64,000 nucleotides of DNA, from the NCBI GenBank assembly GCA_000091205.1, contig AP006500.2; one strand, written 5' to 3'. Each line of letters begins with the position of its first letter. Position 1 is the first letter of the stretch. Of this stretch, positions 22,793 through 58,100 are shown in pieces. Made by a program: the position numbers and the translations under genes. The notes beneath the pieces were generated by a model. That model was not told where the DNA came from, searched no databases, and saw only the letters and a program-made list of their open reading frames with translations. The stretch is from Cyanidioschyzon merolae (lineage: Eukaryota).

Positions 22793-25294
22793 CGAGACCG
22801 GAACGATTGCGTTTGCTCAACACAGACTCGGCATCAGCTCGTTAAAAGTGCGACCATATTCATGTGTGTCACATGTTTCCGAACGACCAGATTTGCGATG
22901 CCTAGTCGCCTGCAGGTGTCCCGATGCCCCCAGTGAACGACACACGACTGATACTGAGGCGACAAGAAGCATGTGTTGCTGCGTCTGACATTCGCGTAGC
23001 GGTGGCTGCGGCTCAAGGCTTGTCCAGAAAGCGCTCGAGCGTCAAAGCGTCTGCAATTTTGGTGCAGGTTGATCGCGTGTAAACTCTGCACAGGCACGGA
23101 GTTGGTCAACGATAACGTGTTTCCGGACACAGTTCTCGGCGCTTTTTCGGTGCACGGTAACGGTGCGTTCTGCTTGTATGCGAGCTGCAACGCCCCGAGA
23201 AGCGTAGGGCGTAGCACTCAGTGTTTCTAGGATTGAAAATGGTACGGTTCTGGAAACACGTTGTACCTGCCGGTGGGCTTGTAAACGGAGTGCGATGGCC
23301 TGATTGGTAGCCCTGCACCAGAGCATACGCTGTGTGTCGGTTGTTGGCACGGGCCGAAGCCGAACCCAGCACCTGCACTTTTATCGTCGTTACCGTCGCT
23401 CATGCATCACTGGAGATCAGATGGCTATGATGCGTGTAAGCACAGCAATGCCGCTTTTCGACAAGTCGTTCTCTGCGCTCACCAGTCCTGGACTGCTGTG
23501 TAGCATCTCTGCTCATACGTAGGCTGGAGCGTAAAATCCGCGCGCTAGTCCATAGGCGTGCTCGTGACGGTAGTAACGAAAATGAACCTATGGCATACCA
23601 GGTACATAGAAAGAAAAGGCGGGTTTCGGTTCCAAAGCCAAGGAGAAGGCGAAGAATCCCGAAGGCGACGATTAGCAGACGGATCTTCTCGAAAAGAAAC
23701 CCCCGAGAGGCATGAAGGAAAAACTGTCGGGGCGGATGGATCAGTCTAAGACCGCTGCCATGGCATTCTTCATGGGAACATATCAAAGGATAGACCCTTT
23801 TAAAAAGTGAGGCACAGGGCGTTATCACGGATCATGTTGCTCCAAATTTGAACGAGACACGTCTGGCTTTTCTCGCCTTGAAGAACCTCGTTAAACAACT
23901 GCCTGTAGGAGTTGCGGACACAGGGTTCCCAGCTGTCGTCATTCATCGGGAAGCCCTGGGTCAAAACTCGATGGGACTAGTGCTTTACAGGACAGGAGCT
24001 GCAACACGGCCTGATCGTGGGTCCCAGGTTTTGCACACACGCTTCGCAGCATACCTCGACGCATCGCTATGCCATATCGGTCATCGGGACACCTAGAGCG
24101 CATGTGCCAAAGGGCATCGACATAAGCTCCCGGAGCGTATGGGTGTCGATGTCCAGCGTCTCATGAAGCGCACCCTGTGGGCGTCGTCGAAGTCTCTCCC
24201 TAATGGACCAGAAAACCGGGACTCAAGGAACCGATTCTACGCTTCGTGGAGTTTACAAGCGTCCAAGTGGCTCATGCGGACGATCTGTGACTAGGCTGCA
24301 TGAGACTGCACTAGGCCCGCGAACGATTTCATTTACACGAAAGCAATGAGCGTGTACACACCGAGCTATTGAATGAGGTGGCAAATGGAATGACCGCCAA
24401 GTCGCCTTATTTTGTGGCCGCCCATCGCGCTCGACGTATGGCAGCGAGCATGGGCTACACGCCCGCTTTTTGGCGATTGCGTACAATGAGTCCAGGAAAC
24501 GATTCTGCGCGATTTCCGAGGACACCTTCAGGACGGCATAGAGGCATCACGAGCACGGGTGCTTGCTGAAACTGCCAACGGAGAAGCGCGTAGAACAGAG
24601 ACGGATGCACGGGATAGTGTGCGGTACGCTGAGCGAATGCCAAATGGCGAGGCAACCGGAGATGAGCGGCGTCGCCTGGGTCGGATTCCACCGGTAACCC
24701 TGCGGGCAGGCAGTCTCTGCATCGAGACTTGAGCGTCACCGTCAACATTCGACAATGTCTCGCGTATCCGGAGCGTCCAGCGGATTTGTGTAGAGCGACC
24801 TTTCAAAGGAGTCGTTTCGTATTCAGCACGGGTATTTCGCTGAACCGCTGAAGACTCTGGATGAAAAAATACATGCAGTCAGGGTAGAACGCGTAGTCCA
24901 TGCTCGACTGGATCAACGCATTGGTATGGTGTGGTTCAGGGATCGGGCAAGGTCGGAACACCAGACGTGCAATCAACGGAAATGCTTTTCCTGTTCATTG
25001 ATAAACGATTTCAATGTTGCATTTTCCGATCATATACCGGACACCTGTCAACCGACACCCAGGCTCTGGGATACAGCGATTTCGCCATCGCGACGGGGAA
25101 GCGTGCTTCGGCTCGCTTCTCAAGCGCCGTACGCTGGACCCAGACTTGGATTCGAGTCTGAGAATCCGTCCCCGAAGTGAACAAGCGCCCTGGTTCCATT
25201 TCAAGCTAGCGTATGGGTAAAAATTCGCGTTTTACATCGATGCGGCCCGTCACACCCATTCACATACGAGTCGGCGTGAACGCGGCGATCCGAG

Positions 25295-27844
25295 TCAAAC
25301 GGATGCTTGGTTATCTGTCTCGTCCCAGAGCGGTACACGCAACACCGGCTCTATCAAAACAACCCAGGGCTGTAGCCCCGACTGCTCTTTGATGATATCG
25401 CTGGCAGGCCGCTCCGCTCGCAGATCATCACCCCAGGATGCAACCAGCAGCACATCGATCCACACAAAAGGCATGGTGAGCACATATCGAAGCGACTGGG
25501 AGAACGCCTCCACTCGCTCTGGTTCAGCCGTTGACCAGCTCATGTTCGTCCCAGTGCAGAGCGTTGTCAGATCCTCGTCAAGTACCCAAGCCGAAATCAC
25601 CGTCGGCGCAGAAGCGATTATTTTCCGATTTTCGAAACGCAGGTCGTCATTTAGAAACGGCTGATTTTCCACCGCTTCTTTCGATCCACTCGGGCACTGG
25701 AATGGCAGATCTGTCAAAAGCAGCTGCAGCATGTGCCGCGAGTCAGCGTCAACGATCCAGTGCACGTCGCAGACGCAGGCGTACACGCGGTAGAGCCGAT
25801 GCATTGGAGTGTCGGCGCGCGCGCACGCATTACCCGCTGCACGCATCGAGCGCAGTGCACGCATGTCATCCAACATATGCGCAAGCGACTGAGGGCGTAG
25901 CGCTTGCCAGGGTATGCTCATCGTTGAACTTGTCTGTAGCAGCGGTGGACCACTACAATGCAGGCAGCTGGGGTGCTGTACAGGACCCCGTTTGACAATT
26001 CCTGTCTCTGCGGACTCGATATTAGTCGTTGTATGGGAGGTGGTGGTGTAGGCAACGCGTTCGCGATTCAGTTCGGTGCACGGGGCGCTGAGTATGGGAT
26101 AGGCAGCAGCGCTCATTTGTTCCGGTGTATTTCGGGTGCCAAGCGCACGCTGGTGAGCAACGGGCGCTGCTTCGTATGCGCTTTGCGAATCGGTCCGACA
26201 CGTGGGATCAGTCAATGCTGCTCCCAAGTGCTGCATGCGACTTTGCACCTCGGGCATCCATTGCGGGAACTTGTAAATCGATGAACCCTCATTCATGGTC
26301 AGGCGCAAAGGCAGACCCGGGCGTCGATCGAGGCGTACATCGCGAAGCCGGAACCAGTTACCGCGAAGGTGCGGCTCCAGTCGATGTGTGAGCCGCGTCC
26401 AGCACTCTGCGGCAATGGAGACCGTCACCAAATCGGAGATGCTTCCGTCGGTGACTTTGAGCAGGAATTCGTACGGGGTTTTCTCCAAGTCCCGAATGAG
26501 CACCACCAGATCGTATCGTAGCCGTTGCATGGCGCTGCCGTTTGCTGAGTCGACCACAAGCGAACTTTGCAGAATGTCTCGCAGGGTGGCGGAGAACGCC
26601 TTCGAGCCGAGAAAGCCGCTTTGCGACAGGAGTGCACGCGCCCAACGTAGCAACTCCATGGCGTAACATTTTTCACTATTGGTGATCACGATCGATTTCG
26701 TGTTTGACGGGTAAGCATATATGAGCGGATCGGGTAAATGATTCATTTCTTCGAGATGAGTGGCGGTCGCGGCTCGCAGACCGGACAAGTCTCCGGAAGC
26801 GGAAGCCGACGAGCGTCCCAAACCAGCTCCCTCATCATGCTGAGCAAGTGCAGGCCAGAGGCACATAGAAGAGAGCGAATTTGTCTTCAGCTCCAACGTC
26901 TCCGTCTTCGAACCACTCGGACTCTGTTGGGGAAACCACCGCAGCTCGGCGCGATGTACCCGGACGACGTCTCCTACCCCGATGTACGGAACGCAATCGC
27001 TAAGACGGCTACTGAACGAGGTAAGCATGAATTGGGGAGGTGCGAAGCTCACCAGCCGCCCATCAGAGTCTGTTACGACGATGCTTGGATCGATGATCTG
27101 CAGCTCAGTGAGCAGTTCTCCGGTACGTACCAGGCGAGGCGCCCGGACGTCGACGATCACCCCGTAAACGTCATACGTGCGACCGGACATCTGGCCGGGG
27201 TGTCGCAACTGCTCAAGCGTTAAGTAGTGATGTTTTGAGTCCAGGGGCACTACAGGCCTCGGAACTGGTTCGCAACTTTCGTGCTGTGCGACGGGGCGTC
27301 CACTGGTGTCCGTCCCTGCACCATGCTCTGTGACGACCAGAGTTTGCCCTATAGACTCCGGAGACAGCTTCATGATACGTGCGTTTGCAAGTTGGGATAG
27401 ATCGTTGCACTTGCCGGCGTCTTTGAATATGGTGAGCGCGGGTTTGCAGGCTGTTGCGTCTGCGGCACCAGCACAGCAGGCCTCTCGCTGGTCAGGACCC
27501 AGTACCACCGCGTACTCGTGTAGTTCCAGACACGAGTCCAACAGTCCATGGTCCCTGGCCTCACAAATGTCGCCCAGCGGTACGACCTGTGCGTTCTGAA
27601 CCTCCACAACGTCCCAGTGTGCTAGGGCGGTGCCCGCGGCCGTCCAGTCGCCGGTGCAAACAAGCACAACCACGGTCTGCTGTGGAGCAGGAACACTCGG
27701 CCAGGGCTCAAGTAAAGCAAGGATCGCTCTACCTGAACGATTTTCAACTAATGTTCGAAGGACTCGCCCTCGTAGACGAAATGGATGCTCAGCGTTGCAG
27801 GTGTAGGGCTTGAGGCTCCGAAACTGCACGAGACGCAGTTCCAT
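25295..27844 (-). CDS. hypothetical protein (~850 aa). Possible OB-fold-like segments; function unknown.
   Basis: Long uninterrupted minus-strand frame 25295-27979. The track start at 27979 overlaps the 3' end of the Fanzor-like frame, so the downstream ATG at ~27844 (MELRLVQF) is preferred. Segments such as TYDVYGVIVDVRAP..TGELLTELQIIDPS resemble ssDNA-binding OB folds, but only weakly. Confidence 0.4.
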   Translation of the reverse strand: MELRLVQFRSLKPYTCNAEHPFRLRGRVLRTLVENRSGRAILALLEPWPSVPAPQQTVVVLVCTGDWTAAGTALAHWDVVEVQNAQVVPLGDICEARDHGLLDSCLELHEYAVVLGPDQREACCAGAADATACKPALTIFKDAGKCNDLSQLANARIMKLSPESIGQTLVVTEHGAGTDTSGRPVAQHESCEPVPRPVVPLDSKHHYLTLEQLRHPGQMSGRTYDVYGVIVDVRAPRLVRTGELLTELQIIDPSIVVTDSDGRLVSFAPPQFMLTSFSSRLSDCVPYIGVGDVVRVHRAELRWFPQQSPSGSKTETLELKTNSLSSMCLWPALAQHDEGAGLGRSSASASGDLSGLRAATATHLEEMNHLPDPLIYAYPSNTKSIVITNSEKCYAMELLRWARALLSQSGFLGSKAFSATLRDILQSSLVVDSANGSAMQRLRYDLVVLIRDLEKTPYEFLLKVTDGSISDLVTVSIAAECWTRLTHRLEPHLRGNWFRLRDVRLDRRPGLPLRLTMNEGSSIYKFPQWMPEVQSRMQHLGAALTDPTCRTDSQSAYEAAPVAHQRALGTRNTPEQMSAAAYPILSAPCTELNRERVAYTTTSHTTTNIESAETGIVKRGPVQHPSCLHCSGPPLLQTSSTMSIPWQALRPQSLAHMLDDMRALRSMRAAGNACARADTPMHRLYRVYACVCDVHWIVDADSRHMLQLLLTDLPFQCPSGSKEAVENQPFLNDDLRFENRKIIASAPTVISAWVLDEDLTTLCTGTNMSWSTAEPERVEAFSQSLRYVLTMPFVWIDVLLVASWGDDLRAERPASDIIKEQSGLQPWVVLIEPVLRVPLWDETDNQASV

Positions 27845-27920
27845 AGATTCCGTCGCACCAACAACGCCGTTCGAAAGTCGAACGACGCCAACGGTGTACA
27901 GTAGTGGCGGGAAAACCGTC

Positions 27921-30423
27921 TTAGAGAAGATGTCTCCAACTGACGTGCAGACACCTCCCCGCCTTTTTGGACCGGCCACCCACTACTGCTTCCAACTTTT
28001 TCTCATCTAGTTCGACTTTGATAGGTTGTCCAATAAAGTTCTCTCTTGTCAGCTCTGGAGGTCTCGTCTCCAGGACCGCACATCTCCGTACATTGATAGC
28101 GGCATTAAAGTCTCGGTTCACAAACTCCATACGTTTCTTCCCGTTGCGAGTTGTACTCACTATTGCGAGTAGCCCTCGAACTTTCGCCCTCCTTTCCATT
28201 TGCTCCTCCGTCAGCGGTCCGTACTTTGCTATTTCCTCAGGGCTCCTCTGGCACTTTTCTATCTCCACGCTCTGAAGTGTACAACCCAGTTCGTGGTATA
28301 TATACGATGTTCGGAACTCATCTACAGGTATCGTAACAAAACGCCTTGCGCACTGTTTGTGCACCCTCGTCGTTGGAGCTGGAGTAGTGCCTTTCTTGGG
28401 CGCCCAGCGCCCTGCCCCATACGCTACTACGAGCCTTTGACTTTCATCCTCCTTCAAGGCGCTCAACTGATTGAAAAAGTTGGCAAACGCCCGCTGCTTC
28501 CCACCGTATAGATTCATTCGCAAACGAGCCCACCGGGGCTTCGTATACTCCTCCCACAGCGCATCCCAATGCGCCATGCGAACTTCCATGAATTTCCGAA
28601 AAGCTTCAAATTTCGCGCTTCGGCTAGTCACCTTGCTCAAAGCTTCCAGGTGATCCTTCATCCCTGAATTCCAAGTCTCGATTTTCTTCCTTGCATTCAT
28701 GATTCCCGATTCTCGATAGTATCTCGCTCTCGAGAACGTCAAGAGACGCATGTCTTTCTGACGTAAGTTGCCGTCAGTACAATCTTCCGCCCGCTTCGGT
28801 GCTGCGATGGTGATGATATTTGAGTTTCCGGTGTCCGCGCCAACGACAAAGTCGTTATCTTGCACTTTCTGCTTCTCAGAACCGGGCTTCTTGTTTTCTT
28901 CATGGTTCGTCGCGTCAACGACAAAGTCGTTATCCTGCACCTCCTGCACCAGAGGATCCGCTTCCTTCCCATCTTCATCCTTCGTCACGTCAACGACAAG
29001 GTCGTTATCCTCCACCTCCTGCATCGCAGGTTCTGCCTCCTTCTCATCTTCATCGTTCGTCACGTCAACGACAAAGTCGTTCTCTTGCACCTCCTGTGTC
29101 GCAGGATCCGCCTCCTTCTCATATTCATCCTTCGCCACGTCAACGACAAACTCGTTATCCTCCACCTCCTGCATCACAGGATCCTCCTCTTTGTTTTCTC
29201 CATCCTTCGCGACGAGCGCAGCCGAGGGCGGAACTGGCCGACCTTCCTTCAACCGCCGATAGTGTACACACAAGGGTACTCCATCGGTTTCGATCAACCC
29301 AGTAAATACCTTTTTTTGCTGACTTTTAGACGTTTGAAATCGAAGATACTCTTCCAGTACGTCTCCCGGTGTTCGCCGGAGAACTCCTCCCTGCTAACAT
29401 CGAACTCCGGACAGATCTCCCTCATGATGCCGTAAAGGACGCCGGAGTCGATAGTTACAAAATGTGACTTGACTTTCCACATTGGAACCACGTTGAAGCG
29501 CTTCCCCATTAGGAAATTCTTCCGTCTCTCCCACTGTTCATTTGTCTCTTCACTCAGCTTCACCTCCGCTTTGCGTGCGAGCTCTCGGTCCAAAAACACG
29601 AAATAGCGCAGGATGAGGCGGTAGTATCTTTCCTTATCTTTTTTCAACGGTGATATCTTGTCTGTTGGATTCACCAACCCAGTGCCGCACGGTGCTCTTG
29701 TATAGCCGCACGGATCACAGAAGCTTCATTCGTGCTCCTGCGTGATGTCTTCATATCGACAAATTCGATCTCATCTTCATACTTTCGATCGTTCGTGATG
29801 CCGTTGATCATCGCCCATATTCCTTTGCGAGAGATGCCCGGGTAGAGTGCAAACACGGCGCGTTTCATGAAACGTTCGAGGTTCTCTGTCAAATGCTTCT
29901 TCAGGTTCGTAATGTACTTCATTACCCCGTATGTGTAAATATTTCCGTCACCCTTGTATCGGGTACGCTCGAAGCGGTATTCGGCGTAGTTTTCGTGGAG
30001 AGCGTGCACTAGCACATTTTCCTTCCGCGCTTCCCCTGTACCAAGCATCAGGTGACGAATAAAGGTCTTGTGGAAAAACTCGTCTGGAATCTCGACCGTT
30101 TCCATGTGCGTCACGTCGCGATACATCTCCCTCGCCAAATGCATCAGCCCTGAAGACGCCTTGACAATACTCTTGGAGTGCGAGTCGACACGTTTTTCGA
30201 TAGCGTCTCGCAACTTTTCCCTGTAGGGATCCTTGATATGTCCAAGAAGGAAGGCTTTCACCACCATCTCGTCGTACAGTCGTCTTTCTTGCCGCCTTCG
30301 ACGTAGGGCGTCCACCTTTCGATTCTCCTTCACTTCCTTTTCTTCTGGACTCGGCACTGTATTTGTTTTTTTTCTGGCAGCCGGCGACACTGGGCCTCCA
30401 GGATCGTGGACTTGCTTTTTCAT
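27921..30423 (-). pseudogene. TnpB/Fanzor-like RNA-guided RuvC endonuclease homolog (OrfB_IS605 family). The frame of about 835 codons is split into three ORF-track segments (30423-29671, 29677-29294, 29297-27921) by two +1 frame changes.
   Basis: Middle segment: RuvC-I-like ..[16 protein letters not shown].. (Asp codon ~29436-29438). 3' segment: TnpB-type ..RRFVTIPVDEFRTSYIYHELGC.. (the 'VDP.YTSQ.C' block) and RuvC-III ..EFVNRDFNAAINVRR.. (Asp codon ~28110-28112). The CxxC zinc ribbon is mostly missing, and the canonical RuvC-II Glu position reads ..RLVVAYGAGRW.. (substituted). The middle and 3' segments begin with TTG in the ORF track, and their frames stay open upstream and overlap. One junction coincides with the A7/T7 run at 29311-29317. 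Confidence 0.7.
28847..29192 (-). repeat. five tandem 75-bp repeats encoding an acidic 25-aa unit (consensus ~QEVxDNDFVVDVTxDEDxKEADPxx) inside the Fanzor-like frame
   Basis: The period is visible directly in the DNA (gtcaacgacaaagtcgttatcctgcacctcctgc... recurring every 75 nt) and in the translation (PVMQEVEDNEFVVDVAKDEYEKEADPATQEVQENDFVVDVTNDEDEKEAEPAMQEVEDNDLVVDVTKDEDGKEADPLVQEVQDNDFVVDATN...). It sits between the RuvC-I and RuvC-II regions. Confidence 0.85.
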
Positions 30424-30780
30424 AGCTTTCCTTTTTTAGTTTTTTTGAGAAAGAACGCTCTTTGAACCCTTCTGTTATATACTGCGAAAAATTAATCGAA
30501 TATTTTTACTTGAGGTTTGAAGCACAATCGAACTGAAAGACTGTACGTTGCTATGACCTGAACGAAAATACAACGTTTACAATAGATCTACATGCTAGAG
30601 ATCAGGATCACGTTCCCCTTCAAAAACGGCATGTGCGTCGTGTCTCATGCCTGCCTGATCTCCGAGGTGCGCTCACTGAGCGCGATGCAAACTAGTCACA
30701 AACTATTTATCAAAGAACAACTATCTTTAAGCCCAACACACCACGCCCGCATAAGAGGTCTAGTTTTTCCGGAGAAGCTC
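30424..30780. promoter_or_regulatory. AT-rich (~35-40% GC) spacer directly upstream of the Fanzor-like frame start; putative promoter or element end
   Basis: Sharp drop in GC (tttttttagtttttttgagaaagaacgc...ttatatactgcgaaaaattaatcgaatatttttacttg) compared with ~60% in the flanks. It lies between divergently oriented mobile-element reading frames. Confidence 0.3.
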
Positions 30781-34900: not shown

Positions 34901-35357
34901 GATCGGAGAACGCTGGCCTAAGTAAACGTTTTGTCCATGAAAACAATCGTAGCTTCAGCAACGGTGAAACCGGGGCTCGGCGTTCCGCGGGGCATGCTCC
35001 ACTGACTTGTCGAATATGCACGAAAATTGTCGAATTCATTGCTGATGACGCTGCTACTGTGTTGCAGTAGTACGCAGTGGACCTGTCTTCTGCGAGTCTC
35101 GAGAACATTTTGCACTCGAACGGAAACCTGTACGTTCGGACGCTTAGACCATTCGCGTCAGAGGATGCTTTTCAAAATGCATTCTTATCGGGAAAACTCG
35201 AACGTCTCCGCGCAATACCCAGCCATATTACCGGCACTAGCGTGGCCGATTGGCCCCCTTCGACGCCGCTGGCTACAGAGCACTAGTAACCGAGACGCTC
35301 TGGGCATCTCGCAAGCATCGCGTTGCCAATCGCATGGATAAGCTCTGGAATGCCAGC

Positions 35358-35507
35358 GGATACAATCGATCATTCGCTATTTGCTCCGTGTCAACGATGA
35401 GACACACCCAGCAATCGTATGCACCGAGTTTCGGATACAATCGATCATTCGCTATTTGCTCCGTGTCAACGATGAGACACACCCAGCAATCGTATGCACC
35501 GAGGTTC
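35358..35507. repeat. near-perfect tandem duplication, two copies of 75 bp
   Basis: Unit ggatacaatcgatcattcgctatttgctccgtgtcaacgatgagacacacccagcaatcgtatgcaccgag occurs at 35358 and again at 35433 with a single-base difference at the unit end. The small ORFs on both strands that translate as GYNRSFAICSVSTMRHTQQSYAP x2 are probably spurious. Confidence 0.9.
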
Positions 35508-55133: not shown

Positions 55134-58100
55134 CGTGTTCCAGAGGTACTCGTCTCGCCGCGGAGCTGTTTGTCACGGCATCCAGTAGTAGAGCTGCTGC
55201 TGCTGGTGCTGGTGCTGGTGCTGGTGGTGCTGCGAGATTGCCGGCCTCGGAGCTGTGGGCGGAGCGCGCGCGCGCCCCCCCCGGAAGTCCGTTGGCGACG
55301 GCGGCGGCTTTGGCTTTGGCTTCGACGCCATGCGGGCGATGCGCAAGCCATGACCGTTTTGTACGCAATTGTCGTGACTAGATATTTTTGTTCTTCGAGG
55401 CTGAGCGGCCGCATGAATCGCCTGTCGATTCGTTGCGTGACGCCCGTACGCAGTCATCACGAATCATGGAACATTTTATGGGTCTGCGGTGACGCCCGGA
55501 GACCGTTCGCTGTATATCCATACAGCGAGCTGGTCTTCCTGGATTATTGATCGTACCATATGAATGTCTCGCACAAGGTGGCGATGCATCTCGCGGAGCC
55601 ACGGATTTATTTTTCATGGAAAGTATCCTGCATTTCAGCAACATATCAGCACGACGTACGCAACGATTCCTTCGAGCGTGCGTTCGATACAGAACCAGTA
55701 GACGCTTTGGAAACAGACGATATTTCCGAAGGTTGATTGAGGCGTTCAGATCTCGGTAAGGAAAGTGCTTGTGCGCTCGGTTGCTGCTGGTGGCAGCAGA
55801 CGCTAGCGAGCCGCTCACTTTCGATTTTTCGCGCCATTCGACTTTCGGTTAACGGTTCGTGCACCAATCTCGGACATCTGTCTCTGTTTCACGCACTGCT
55901 TACCGAGTTGTTTCAAGGTGCAAACCTGCCCATGATTCGTGGACGGCACCCTCAACGCATCGACGGGAATCGTGTAAAATCGATGACTGCACTTGTTGGA
56001 TACGCGCTTATCATAGAATCAGGAGTGCTGGCTCTGCGCGCTCCAGCATGTCCAGCGCCATCAGCTACGATGGGAGAACGCGAGTTATCAGCGATCTCCG
56101 TTTCCAACTCGAAGAATCATTTCGTGAGCACGCGCTCCTTGACGCGATGCTACCGAAAATCGTCGACGACCGCAGCGCGGTCTCATGGACGCACCCTGAA
56201 TACAGCGCAGAAAGACTCGCTTCTCTTAGATACTGTGCTGAGAGCGTCGATATGGATGCGGAAGTCGGTATTCCATTCACTGGCATGCCGCCGGACGCCC
56301 GAAGATAACGAGCCCCGGAAGAATTGAGCAGATCCGATTACTCTCCATCCAGGCGTTGGATCTCTCCTCCGGATGAAGAGGTACAGCGTTGGCCACGGGG
56401 AACCGGCCGTACCTGGAATCGACGATCACCACTGGTCGAAGCACGATTTGCGGAAGACCGGTGTTCGGGATGCGAAGTGCTCGTGCATTGATCCGTGAAC
56501 GCAAACATGACATTTGATCACCACGAAGACGCCTCTGACTTGACCGACGCAGGGAGCATAGGCAGGCACGAGGAGCGGCTCAACGCCAGTCTCAGCTGCG
56601 TAGTTCGTGACCGCTTTTGAATGAGAGAAGCCGACGTTGTCAAAGAGCACGGCTGACGAATGCGTTGCGGAGAAGCCGCAAACGTGCCTCGACCAAGGAT
56701 GTCGTATCGAATGATCCTGTTCGTTTTTTTTCGGATTCGTCAGCGAGCACACCACTGACCCACTGATTCCGGCTCGAGTCGTCGTCACGCGTTCTTGTCT
56801 CCTGTTTACCGACAGAACGCGGGCTTCTCTTTGTGTGCCCCCGTATAACGCTACCGCTTCTCTCTCGAGTCAGACGACTACCCGTGGATCCTGTACCAAC
56901 TGCTCGCATTCCAGGTCGACCCCGATCGCGTACTGATCAACGCGAGACGGTCTCCCGTGGACGCATGCGTTTCACTTCTTCCGGCCGAGTCTCTGCTTTA
57001 ACGCTCGCATCAACGGTACGGAAACTTTACATTCTGTGGCGTTTTCGTGGTGACCTGCCTTTGGAATCGTATAAAGTTGAATCGATTGACGACGAGATCT
57101 TCATGTAGATGGAGCTGGATATGTTCTCTTTCGGGTGCATGACGTCCAGGATACGGACGACGAGATGGACCATTCGTGTGCCTGCTGACGGTAATCCATC
57201 TGACTTGCATCAATAATTCCGTACAGCCTCAGATATTCCAGAATCCACTGCACTGGGCGGAACCTGAATCCCCTTGGGATGCTTTTCGTGCTACCGCTGG
57301 CACCCGGAGAACTGCCAACAGCGCCTTCGTAGATACCTCTTTCTTCGACTGACTCCCTACCCGTTTTCTTCCGTCTCGAATAGATCCTGCGACGTGATAA
57401 GTGTGTCGTCGGCAATGATGCAACTGTACTTGACGATGCTGGATGTGCTGATACCGTCGTCTGTGCGGGGCAACGCCTCCGACCTTACCGTGCATGCGGA
57501 GACGACTGCCCAAGGTAGCGGCGTCTGAATGTGCGCTCCGGGTAGCGAGCGCCGGTGCCTCCGCTCTACGGGAGACACACGGTAGCAGTCGGGTGCTGTC
57601 CGTAGCGGTTAAGGGAACTTGCCATGCTGTCGTTTCAGCCAGTGCTGGCTCGTACCTTTACTGCTGCCAACTGGCAGCGCTCTAGTCTCAACTCAGGAGC
57701 TGACGCGCACGCGAGGACGTTCCTGAAGAGAAGCACGTACCCAGCGACTGCTTCGTGTACACGCCGAGCACAACCGAGCCCCACGAGCACCGTCCAGTTC
57801 CTGATGTGTAAGGGTGATGAAAAGCCAGCGTACTTGCGGTTCCCGATACCCGCGTATGGTTATCTCGGCATTTCGAGCGTACTGGCGATTGCGGCAATAG
57901 GTTCTGTGTTCGAGCTCAGCTCCGGGAAGCCGCAGTACGGGGTCGTGTTCACCGCGAGCGTGTTGGCTCTGAGCCTGCCCGGGTTTCTGGCCACCTTCTG
58001 GCTCGCTTTGGAAAAGGGACGAGACGAGTCTGACCAATAGCTTTCAAGGGTTTGGGAGTAGGAGGAGCCCCGCCCTGGCATCGCTTGCAGGCTGGAGAGA

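Follow-up and report, generated by a model that had tools for sequence, protein, structure and literature searches.

The question raised by this locus is whether the 3′ end of a Fanzor-like reading frame also encodes the scaffold of a guide RNA and, if so, where that RNA and the transposon carrying it come to an end. The locus lies in a 64,000-nucleotide (nt) stretch of the Cyanidioschyzon merolae genome (contig AP006500.2 of assembly GCA_000091205.1), which was analysed as a whole and is referred to here as the window; an earlier note had placed a candidate guide-RNA region at 27650-27960. Eight proteins encoded in the window match exactly those of C. merolae strain 10D from a chromosome of 1,253,087 bp, CMR418C and CMR439C among them. 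We conclude that 27856-27957 on the minus strand is the right-end (RE) module of CMe-1A, a known Fanzor1 transposon, and that its role in the family is most likely, with fair rather than strong confidence, that of an omegaRNA scaffold. This reading is preferred because the position, size and architecture of the module, an evolutionarily supported terminal hairpin (S3), strand specificity and the existence of gene-less copies all fit it. A right end resembling a guide scaffold is what is expected of a known Fanzor1 family, and here it is found in a dead copy; for the module itself, we infer transcription, processing, protein binding and guide use.

The nuclease coding region of the element is broken into three pieces (Table 1), which fall in frames -2, -1 and -3 by tblastn. 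Since all three are read in one frame in an intact metagenomic relative of 752 amino acids (P0003), the window copy carries two frameshifts, located near 29680 and 29300 by the list of open reading frames (ORFs), and the local nuclease gene is, as its sequence reads, a pseudogene. The Fanzor-like identity assigned by the earlier note is upheld, although the gene is not one ORF. The 458-amino-acid C-terminal ORF contains the RuvC motifs GADTG, DEFRTS and NRDFNAA, with the D, E and RD columns invariant or nearly so in an alignment of 86 relatives. These 86 were drawn from 2,384 cluster representatives recovered by an exhaustive HMMER search, and the profile built from them matched the solved Fanzor1 structures PpFz1 (9cf0, E = 8e-24), SpuFz1 (8gkh, 2e-17) and GtFz1 (9cer, 1e-11), which identifies the window frame as a genuine Fanzor1 relative; Pfam, a phmmer search of the PDB and a shallow profile returned no match with the window ORF, and the deeper profile was needed. 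The coding region also contains about five repeats of 75 nt in tandem (K-E-A-D-P-A-x-Q-E-V-x-D-N-D-F-V-V-D...), which occupy 28838-29212 (minus strand) immediately ahead of RuvC motif I; their number varies among copies, and they are absent from some relatives.

CMe has been listed as a Fanzor1 (PMC3627910), and CMe-1A of C. merolae has been described as a family of about 150 copies, approximately 80% identical to their consensus and about 3 kb long, that has no terminal inverted repeats (TIRs), a target site duplication (TSD) left undetermined and a 5′ part common to another repeat (Bao and Jurka, 2013, Mob DNA 4:12; PMC3627910). The window element shares the host, a length of about 2.8-3 kb, copies approximately 75-85% identical, the lack of TIRs, a Fanzor1 ORF as the sole gene, variable or composite 5′ parts and an undetermined TSD. 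Through this published description, rather than through the Repbase consensus directly, the window element is recognized as one degenerate copy of CMe-1A. The description of CMe-1A is older than the discovery of omegaRNA and mentions neither an RNA module at the right end nor hairpins or an end motif.

The right end of the element was located by comparison with its relatives, 376 of which were recovered from metagenome contigs by a pattern scan; 80 of these loci were retrieved. BLAST of the window against these loci delimits a repeated unit on the minus strand from about 30688 to 27863-27854, with homology end points clustered at 27863 and 27856 and no homology between 27000 and 27850, and the column entropy near 27860 rises across the boundary from 1.17 to 1.78-1.93 bits. 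Beyond the last hairpin, a short spacer of variable length leads to the motif GGTG in 24 of the 49 distinct insertions, and unrelated sequence follows; the window reads ...GCGTT-GTTGGTG and then CGACGGAATCTATGG, with GGTG at 27859-27856. Because one sharp homology end is shared by about 70 copies, the element stops at 27863-27854, so that about one-third of 27650-27960 is element, and from these sequence comparisons it most likely ends after the GGTG at 27856. This point lies 11 nt before the ATG at 27844 and 65-67 nt past the TAA stop of the Fanzor frame (27923-27921, minus strand), which the earlier note had placed correctly at 27921; the paralogue alignment thus does not end upstream of the ORF stop, an outcome that the note had named as speaking against a guide region.

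The structure of the module was examined with a covariance model (R1, 28 seeds), which was adopted after a MAFFT alignment had left subfamilies with distinct hairpins out of register. R1 matches the window at 27852-27957 with 104 bits, matches 85 further places in related loci and locates the module in every copy, at its 3′ end. The window RNA from 27839 to 27960 folds with z = -4.0, none of 200 shuffles being as good, and z-scores of other copies range from -3.3 to -5.4. In single-sequence folds of 68 copies the same parts recur, namely a 5′ hairpin (S1), a second hairpin (S2), a linker and the terminal hairpin S3. Double, compensatory changes occur at all seven inner pairs of S3; 88.1% of its cells are paired as compared with 81.1% in shuffles, and 0/2000 shuffles reach that value. 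Furthermore, S3 has 142 G.U cells against 13 A.C cells, which shows that it is the sense strand, in the form of RNA or of top-strand DNA, that folds into the hairpin. Different terminal hairpins stand at the same place in different subfamilies, for example AACGUUUUUC-UUUU-GAAAGACGUU and GGCGAGCACGCGC-UCGU-GCGCGUGCUCGCC. On the R1 alignment the whole structure has 81.5% of its cells paired and a covariation score of 0.134, as compared with 0.093 in shuffles (0/500 as high) and at most 0.084 in slid controls. The linker, also written ACUACUGUACAC and single-stranded as CUGUACACCGUU in the single-sequence folds, forms together with the 3′ arm of S2 (GCCACTACTGTACAC, 27908-27894) the most conserved non-coding stretch, with an entropy of 0.47-0.57 bits against 0.5-0.8 bits at third codon positions; its 15-mer is matched exactly in 36 loci. 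The stop codon enclosed in S2 is TAA in the window and TAG in most copies, and the S2 loop is variable among copies.

The module also persists apart from the nuclease gene. R1 finds it without a Fanzor coding sequence (CDS) at three places (L074:1451-1549, L037:924-1015 and L040:1043-1131); each of these begins in the S1 loop (CGUCAGU...), and a full Fanzor copy has its left boundary about 700 nt further downstream. The three lie within one shared 5′ module and, to judge from this, probably have a single origin; they may be related to the TE-N2_CMe element mentioned by Bao and Jurka. They recall the gene-less "ghost" omegaRNA loci of S. punctatus (PMC10432273) and the extra gene-less copies of Chlamydomonas Fanzor guide RNA (fRNA); in the Fanzor guide RNAs of Chlamydomonas and mimivirus, conservation also extends into the CDS.

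Among known guide RNAs, those of the Fz1 type comprise a common first stem-loop (SL1) and a variable second stem-loop (SL2) before the guide (PMC11423790). The published 75-nt scaffold of SpuFz1 folds into a 5′ tail, SL1, a 6-nt linker and an SL2 that ends at the guide junction, and the CMe-1A tails of 64-68 nt are predicted to fold into the SL1-like S2, a 7-nt linker and S3, which is SL2-like and closes with pairs that extend to the element end. As modelled, the layout of the RE module therefore matches the Fz1 type, with SL1, a linker and an SL2 closing beside the guide. The experimentally proven SpuFz1 omegaRNA (Saito et al., 2023; PDB 8GKH) is like the candidate CMe-1A module in its size of about 70-75 nt, in the SL1-linker-SL2 order at the guide junction and in having ghost copies, and the two proteins are related at the profile level. 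The scaffolds have no detectable sequence similarity, and the element that carries SpuFz1 is Tc1/mariner-like, has TIRs of 33 bp and a TA TSD, and contributes its TIR to the scaffold; in CMe-1A, by contrast, TIRs are absent, the stop codon lies inside the first stem and the CDS may hold one more hairpin.

In the family, the 3′ end of the Fanzor transcript would fold into the S2 stem-loop around the stop codon, the conserved linker and a long S3 closing at the transposon end. The RNA would then run on by about 15-20 nt into the flank, here from 27855 to about 27840; in SpuFz1, transcripts extend beyond the conserved scaffold by 14-15 nt (PMC10432273). The putative guide segment obtained in this manner, CGACGGAAUCUAUGGA, spans the host ATG at 27844. 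Such a flank-derived guide would direct the Fanzor1 nuclease to the matching empty site. An intact paralogue would be needed as the source of nuclease, because the window gene has two frameshifts, and RNA from the window copy would be usable only by the protein of intact paralogues.

Several results weigh against the scaffold reading. Only one of the three hairpins, S3, is evolutionarily supported. S1 has 75.6% of its cells paired as compared with 75.2% in shuffles (346/2000 as high), and an alternative 5′ fold, in which CAGU/ACUG encloses AGAC/GUCU and S2, fits as well; neither is backed by covariation. S2 has 79.7% paired as compared with 78.1% (12/2000 as high), and its GGCG/CGCC core, which stays the same in about 65 of 69 distinct copies, is evidence neither for nor against pairing. 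In the window, the S2 stem is weakened by a G-to-A change, next to a nuclease that is itself frameshifted. The sequence of S3 varies near the neutral level, though its pairing is kept, and a hairpin kept at a transposon end could also be expected of a DNA-level transposition signal. The alignment used for the pair counts (A4) was fitted to the covariance model, which biases those counts toward the model structure, and RNAalifold, applied to the plain MAFFT alignment of the 68 copies, gave only three base pairs, a near-null result explained by the differing terminal hairpins of the subfamilies, which stand out of register. In Rfam 15, no family reached gathering score anywhere in the window, and the matches over 27700-28400, at E up to 10, were at chance level. 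As the right end spans 27863 versus 27856/27854, the start of the guide is equally imprecise. Finally, neither a target-adjacent motif (TAM), a TSD nor a true 5′ end could be defined at the left end, since the repeats that adjoin this boundary are of at least three kinds. The earlier note had expected the TAM within 27650-27960; in TnpB and Fanzor systems the TAM flanks the left end, and this expectation was misplaced.

Two long-range pairings were also considered. A helix between CAGUAGU in the CDS and ACUACUG in the linker was rejected, since many single changes break the pairing by eye in alignment A2. A 17-nt stretch of the Fanzor CDS, 29253-29269, is 82% complementary to 27894-27910 in the linker; this pairing was likewise discarded, the motif count being at chance level and covariation across copies absent. 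Reduced synonymous variation was not seen at the 3′ end of the Fanzor ORF, where codon periodicity merely fades over the last 30 codons or so.

The most serious competitor, which we hold to be rather unlikely as a full account, treats the terminal hairpin and the end motif as nothing more than DNA cis signals, recognized on single-stranded DNA (ssDNA) by a trans-acting HUH-type enzyme similar to TnpA of IS200/IS605 or RepHel of Helitron2, with no guide RNA involved. Hairpins occur near both element boundaries, and the search for TIRs between the two ends found none, in agreement with the earlier note, which had seen no inverted-repeat terminus. The right-end hairpin structure is kept while its sequence changes, the 3′ end is constant while 5′ modules are swapped among copies, and GGTG, at variable distance, can pair with the CACC just 5′ of the right-end hairpin. 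This arrangement resembles the guide and cleavage-site geometry of IS608. There is also a precedent in Chlamydomonas, where Fanzor1 genes ride on Helitron2 elements with hairpins at both ends (PMC3627910). Against this, ORF and Pfam analyses between the element boundaries found the Fanzor ORF but no gene for an HUH enzyme (Y1 TnpA/RepHel) or another transposase, the ends have neither the 5′-TC nor the 3′-CTRR of Helitrons, and the CACC/GGTG pairing has no covariation, with GGTG present in only about half of the copies. The strongly conserved linker and the S2 hairpin that spans the stop codon would moreover be left unexplained.

A DNA-level role in transposition is nevertheless a live rival that does not exclude the omegaRNA role, since the right end of IS200/IS605 elements is both a DNA signal and the template of the omegaRNA. 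In ISDra2 and IS608 the guide scaffold extends across the 3′ end of the nuclease gene and the right end of the element, subterminal hairpins are present, TIRs are absent and the guide derives from the flank; CMe-1A is alike in these respects, with a candidate scaffold and guide, and the same DNA may serve as transposase signal and as RNA template. CMe-1A differs in being eukaryotic, in carrying Fanzor1 and not TnpB and in having no TnpA gene and no defined target/TAM tetranucleotide, and its IS608-like CACC/GGTG pairing, which shows no covariation, is a possibility only. It is conceivable, but in our view improbable, that CMe-1A keeps the ancestral IS200/IS605-style coupling in full: the right end would be read both as ssDNA by an HUH-type transposase and as omegaRNA scaffold, CACC would pair with a GGTG cleavage site, and mobilization of a one-ended or rolling-circle-like kind would account for a 3′ end that stays constant as 5′ modules are exchanged.

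It is also doubtful that the conserved tail is a plain 3′ untranslated region of the Fanzor mRNA, acting in stability, termination or polyadenylation, or a slowly decaying relic. The tail does follow the stop codon directly, most of its positions vary about as third codon positions do, and S1 and S2 have no covariation; however, one sharp homology end in about 70 copies at different sites marks the terminus of a mobile element, S3 is maintained by compensatory changes, the linker is conserved beyond synonymous sites, and the module persists without an upstream ORF. The wider claim, which places a scaffold RNA, the element end or a TAM within 27650-27855, can practically be set aside: a stable local stem in the single-sequence fold and a terminator-like hairpin at 27741-27723 (consensus scan, with the terminator-like count within chance) fall there, but paralogous homology is absent below 27852, the annotated CDS of the host gene BAM82608.1 begins at 27844, and the interval, unique host 5′ leader and coding sequence, folds with z = -1.3 (22/200 shuffles as good), so that of the region first proposed only about 27856-27957 belongs to the element.

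Table 1. Features of the CMe-1A copy and its flanks in the window (all on the minus strand of the 64,000-nt stretch)
Feature	Coordinates	Strand	Description or basis
Fanzor1 coding region	27921..30423	minus	three frames, 30423-29671, 29677-29294 and 29297-27921 (ORF list)
RE module, candidate omegaRNA scaffold, ~100 nt	27856..27957	minus	covariance model R1, fold z-score
S1, predicted 5′ hairpin in last ORF codons	27927..27957	minus	arms 27957-27946 and 27938-27927; most single-sequence folds
S2 (SL1-like) hairpin, stop codon in 5′ arm	27902..27923	minus	UAG-GGCGGG...CUCGCC-A-CUA
Conserved single-stranded linker	27890..27908	minus	GCCACTACTGTACAC at 27908-27894, then CGTT
S3 (SL2-like) terminal hairpin	27863..27889	minus	GGCGUCGUUCGA-CUU-UCGAACGGCGUU; compensatory changes
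Terminal spacer and end motif GTTGGTG(CG)	27854..27862	minus	BLAST ends, entropy jump, flank comparison
Putative guide segment CGACGGAAUCUAUGGA	27840..27855	minus	flank directly 3′ of the RE module; suggested by SpuFz1
Left boundary of shared Fanzor part	30666..30688	minus	ATCG, hairpin CGCTC-AGT-GAGCG (30682-30670), CACC
Host gene BAM82608.1, telomere-binding-protein-alpha-like	25295..27844	minus	exact protein look-up; outside the element

The neighbouring host gene encodes a protein of 849 amino acids, annotated as "similar to telomere-binding protein alpha subunit" with its start at ATG 27844, in which a POT1 domain is indicated by a weak Pfam match (PF02765). On the minus strand, the reading frame of this gene is open from a GTG at 27979 and reaches its first ATG at 27844. 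Both positions given by the earlier note are therefore present in the sequence; the ATG is the annotated start, whereas the "track start" at 27979 is merely an artefact of read-through across the transposon end. The same read-through leads metagenome gene callers to a host protein of 894 amino acids. The right end of the Fanzor element now forms the 5′ flank of the telomere-binding-protein-like gene (27844-27979, minus strand). An empty site was sought in a metagenomic allele of the host gene (L090), and the insertion was present there too.

At the other end of the element, homology with 35-45 copies begins at 30686-30689. A different repeat adjoins this boundary in the window, from 30689 to at least 32048 (minus strand); it is 87-89% identical in L047, L075, L064, L078 and L010 and is inverted in L014. 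In other copies, at least two other repeat classes abut the same boundary.

A second group of relatives, mariner-type metagenomic Fanzor1 proteins (P0111, P0103 and P0119), is about 48% identical and falls in the same protein clade; the precomputed Pfam label of this family is PF26935 (DUF8286). Their tails share with CMe-1A a hairpin followed by ACUG(U/G)A, together with GGCGUCG-like motifs, but these relatives differ in having an upstream DDE_3 transposase gene, TIRs of 28-30 bp ending in TATA and a tail of about 183 nt, and R1 found no match on their tails. The P0111 loci (L082-L087) and L089 are Tc1/mariner-like elements with the upstream DDE_3 gene and the 28-30-bp TIRs (TATACTCTGT...). 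Features of the Tc1/mariner-borne, SPu-1-like type were looked for in CMe-1A, and neither a TIR nor a DDE gene was found. The window itself contains a second and far more degraded Fanzor1 relic at 23779-24848 (plus strand), where identity to P0111 is 29-41% over several frames; the 3′ tail of the relic, which runs to about 25036, aligns with the mariner-type tails and ends in a TIR-like ...CATTTTCCGATCATATA, a short way downstream of the 3′ end of the telomere-binding-like gene. A weak tblastn match to residues 450-571 of P0111 at 56021-56347 (minus strand, 28% identity, E = 3e-6) may be a third Fanzor-like fragment. Elsewhere in the window, a perfect-looking tandem duplication of 2 x 75 nt, 99% identical, lies at 35357-35506 (plus strand), just upstream of the start (35694) of a cation-ATPase ORF of 1998 amino acids.

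At the window locus itself, little follows in practice: what is present is a pseudogene copy whose right end serves as the 5′ flank of a host gene. The family comprises hundreds more relatives in hot-spring metagenomes besides the approximately 150 genomic copies. Fanzor1 nucleases are in development as compact eukaryotic genome editors, and each requires its cognate omegaRNA scaffold; a defined candidate scaffold of about 70-100 nt, together with the right end, is now available for CMe-1A, the family of a thermo-acidophilic red alga. CMe-1A is a TIR-less Fanzor1 element, and its precise ends and end structures are a first step toward identifying its mobilizer.

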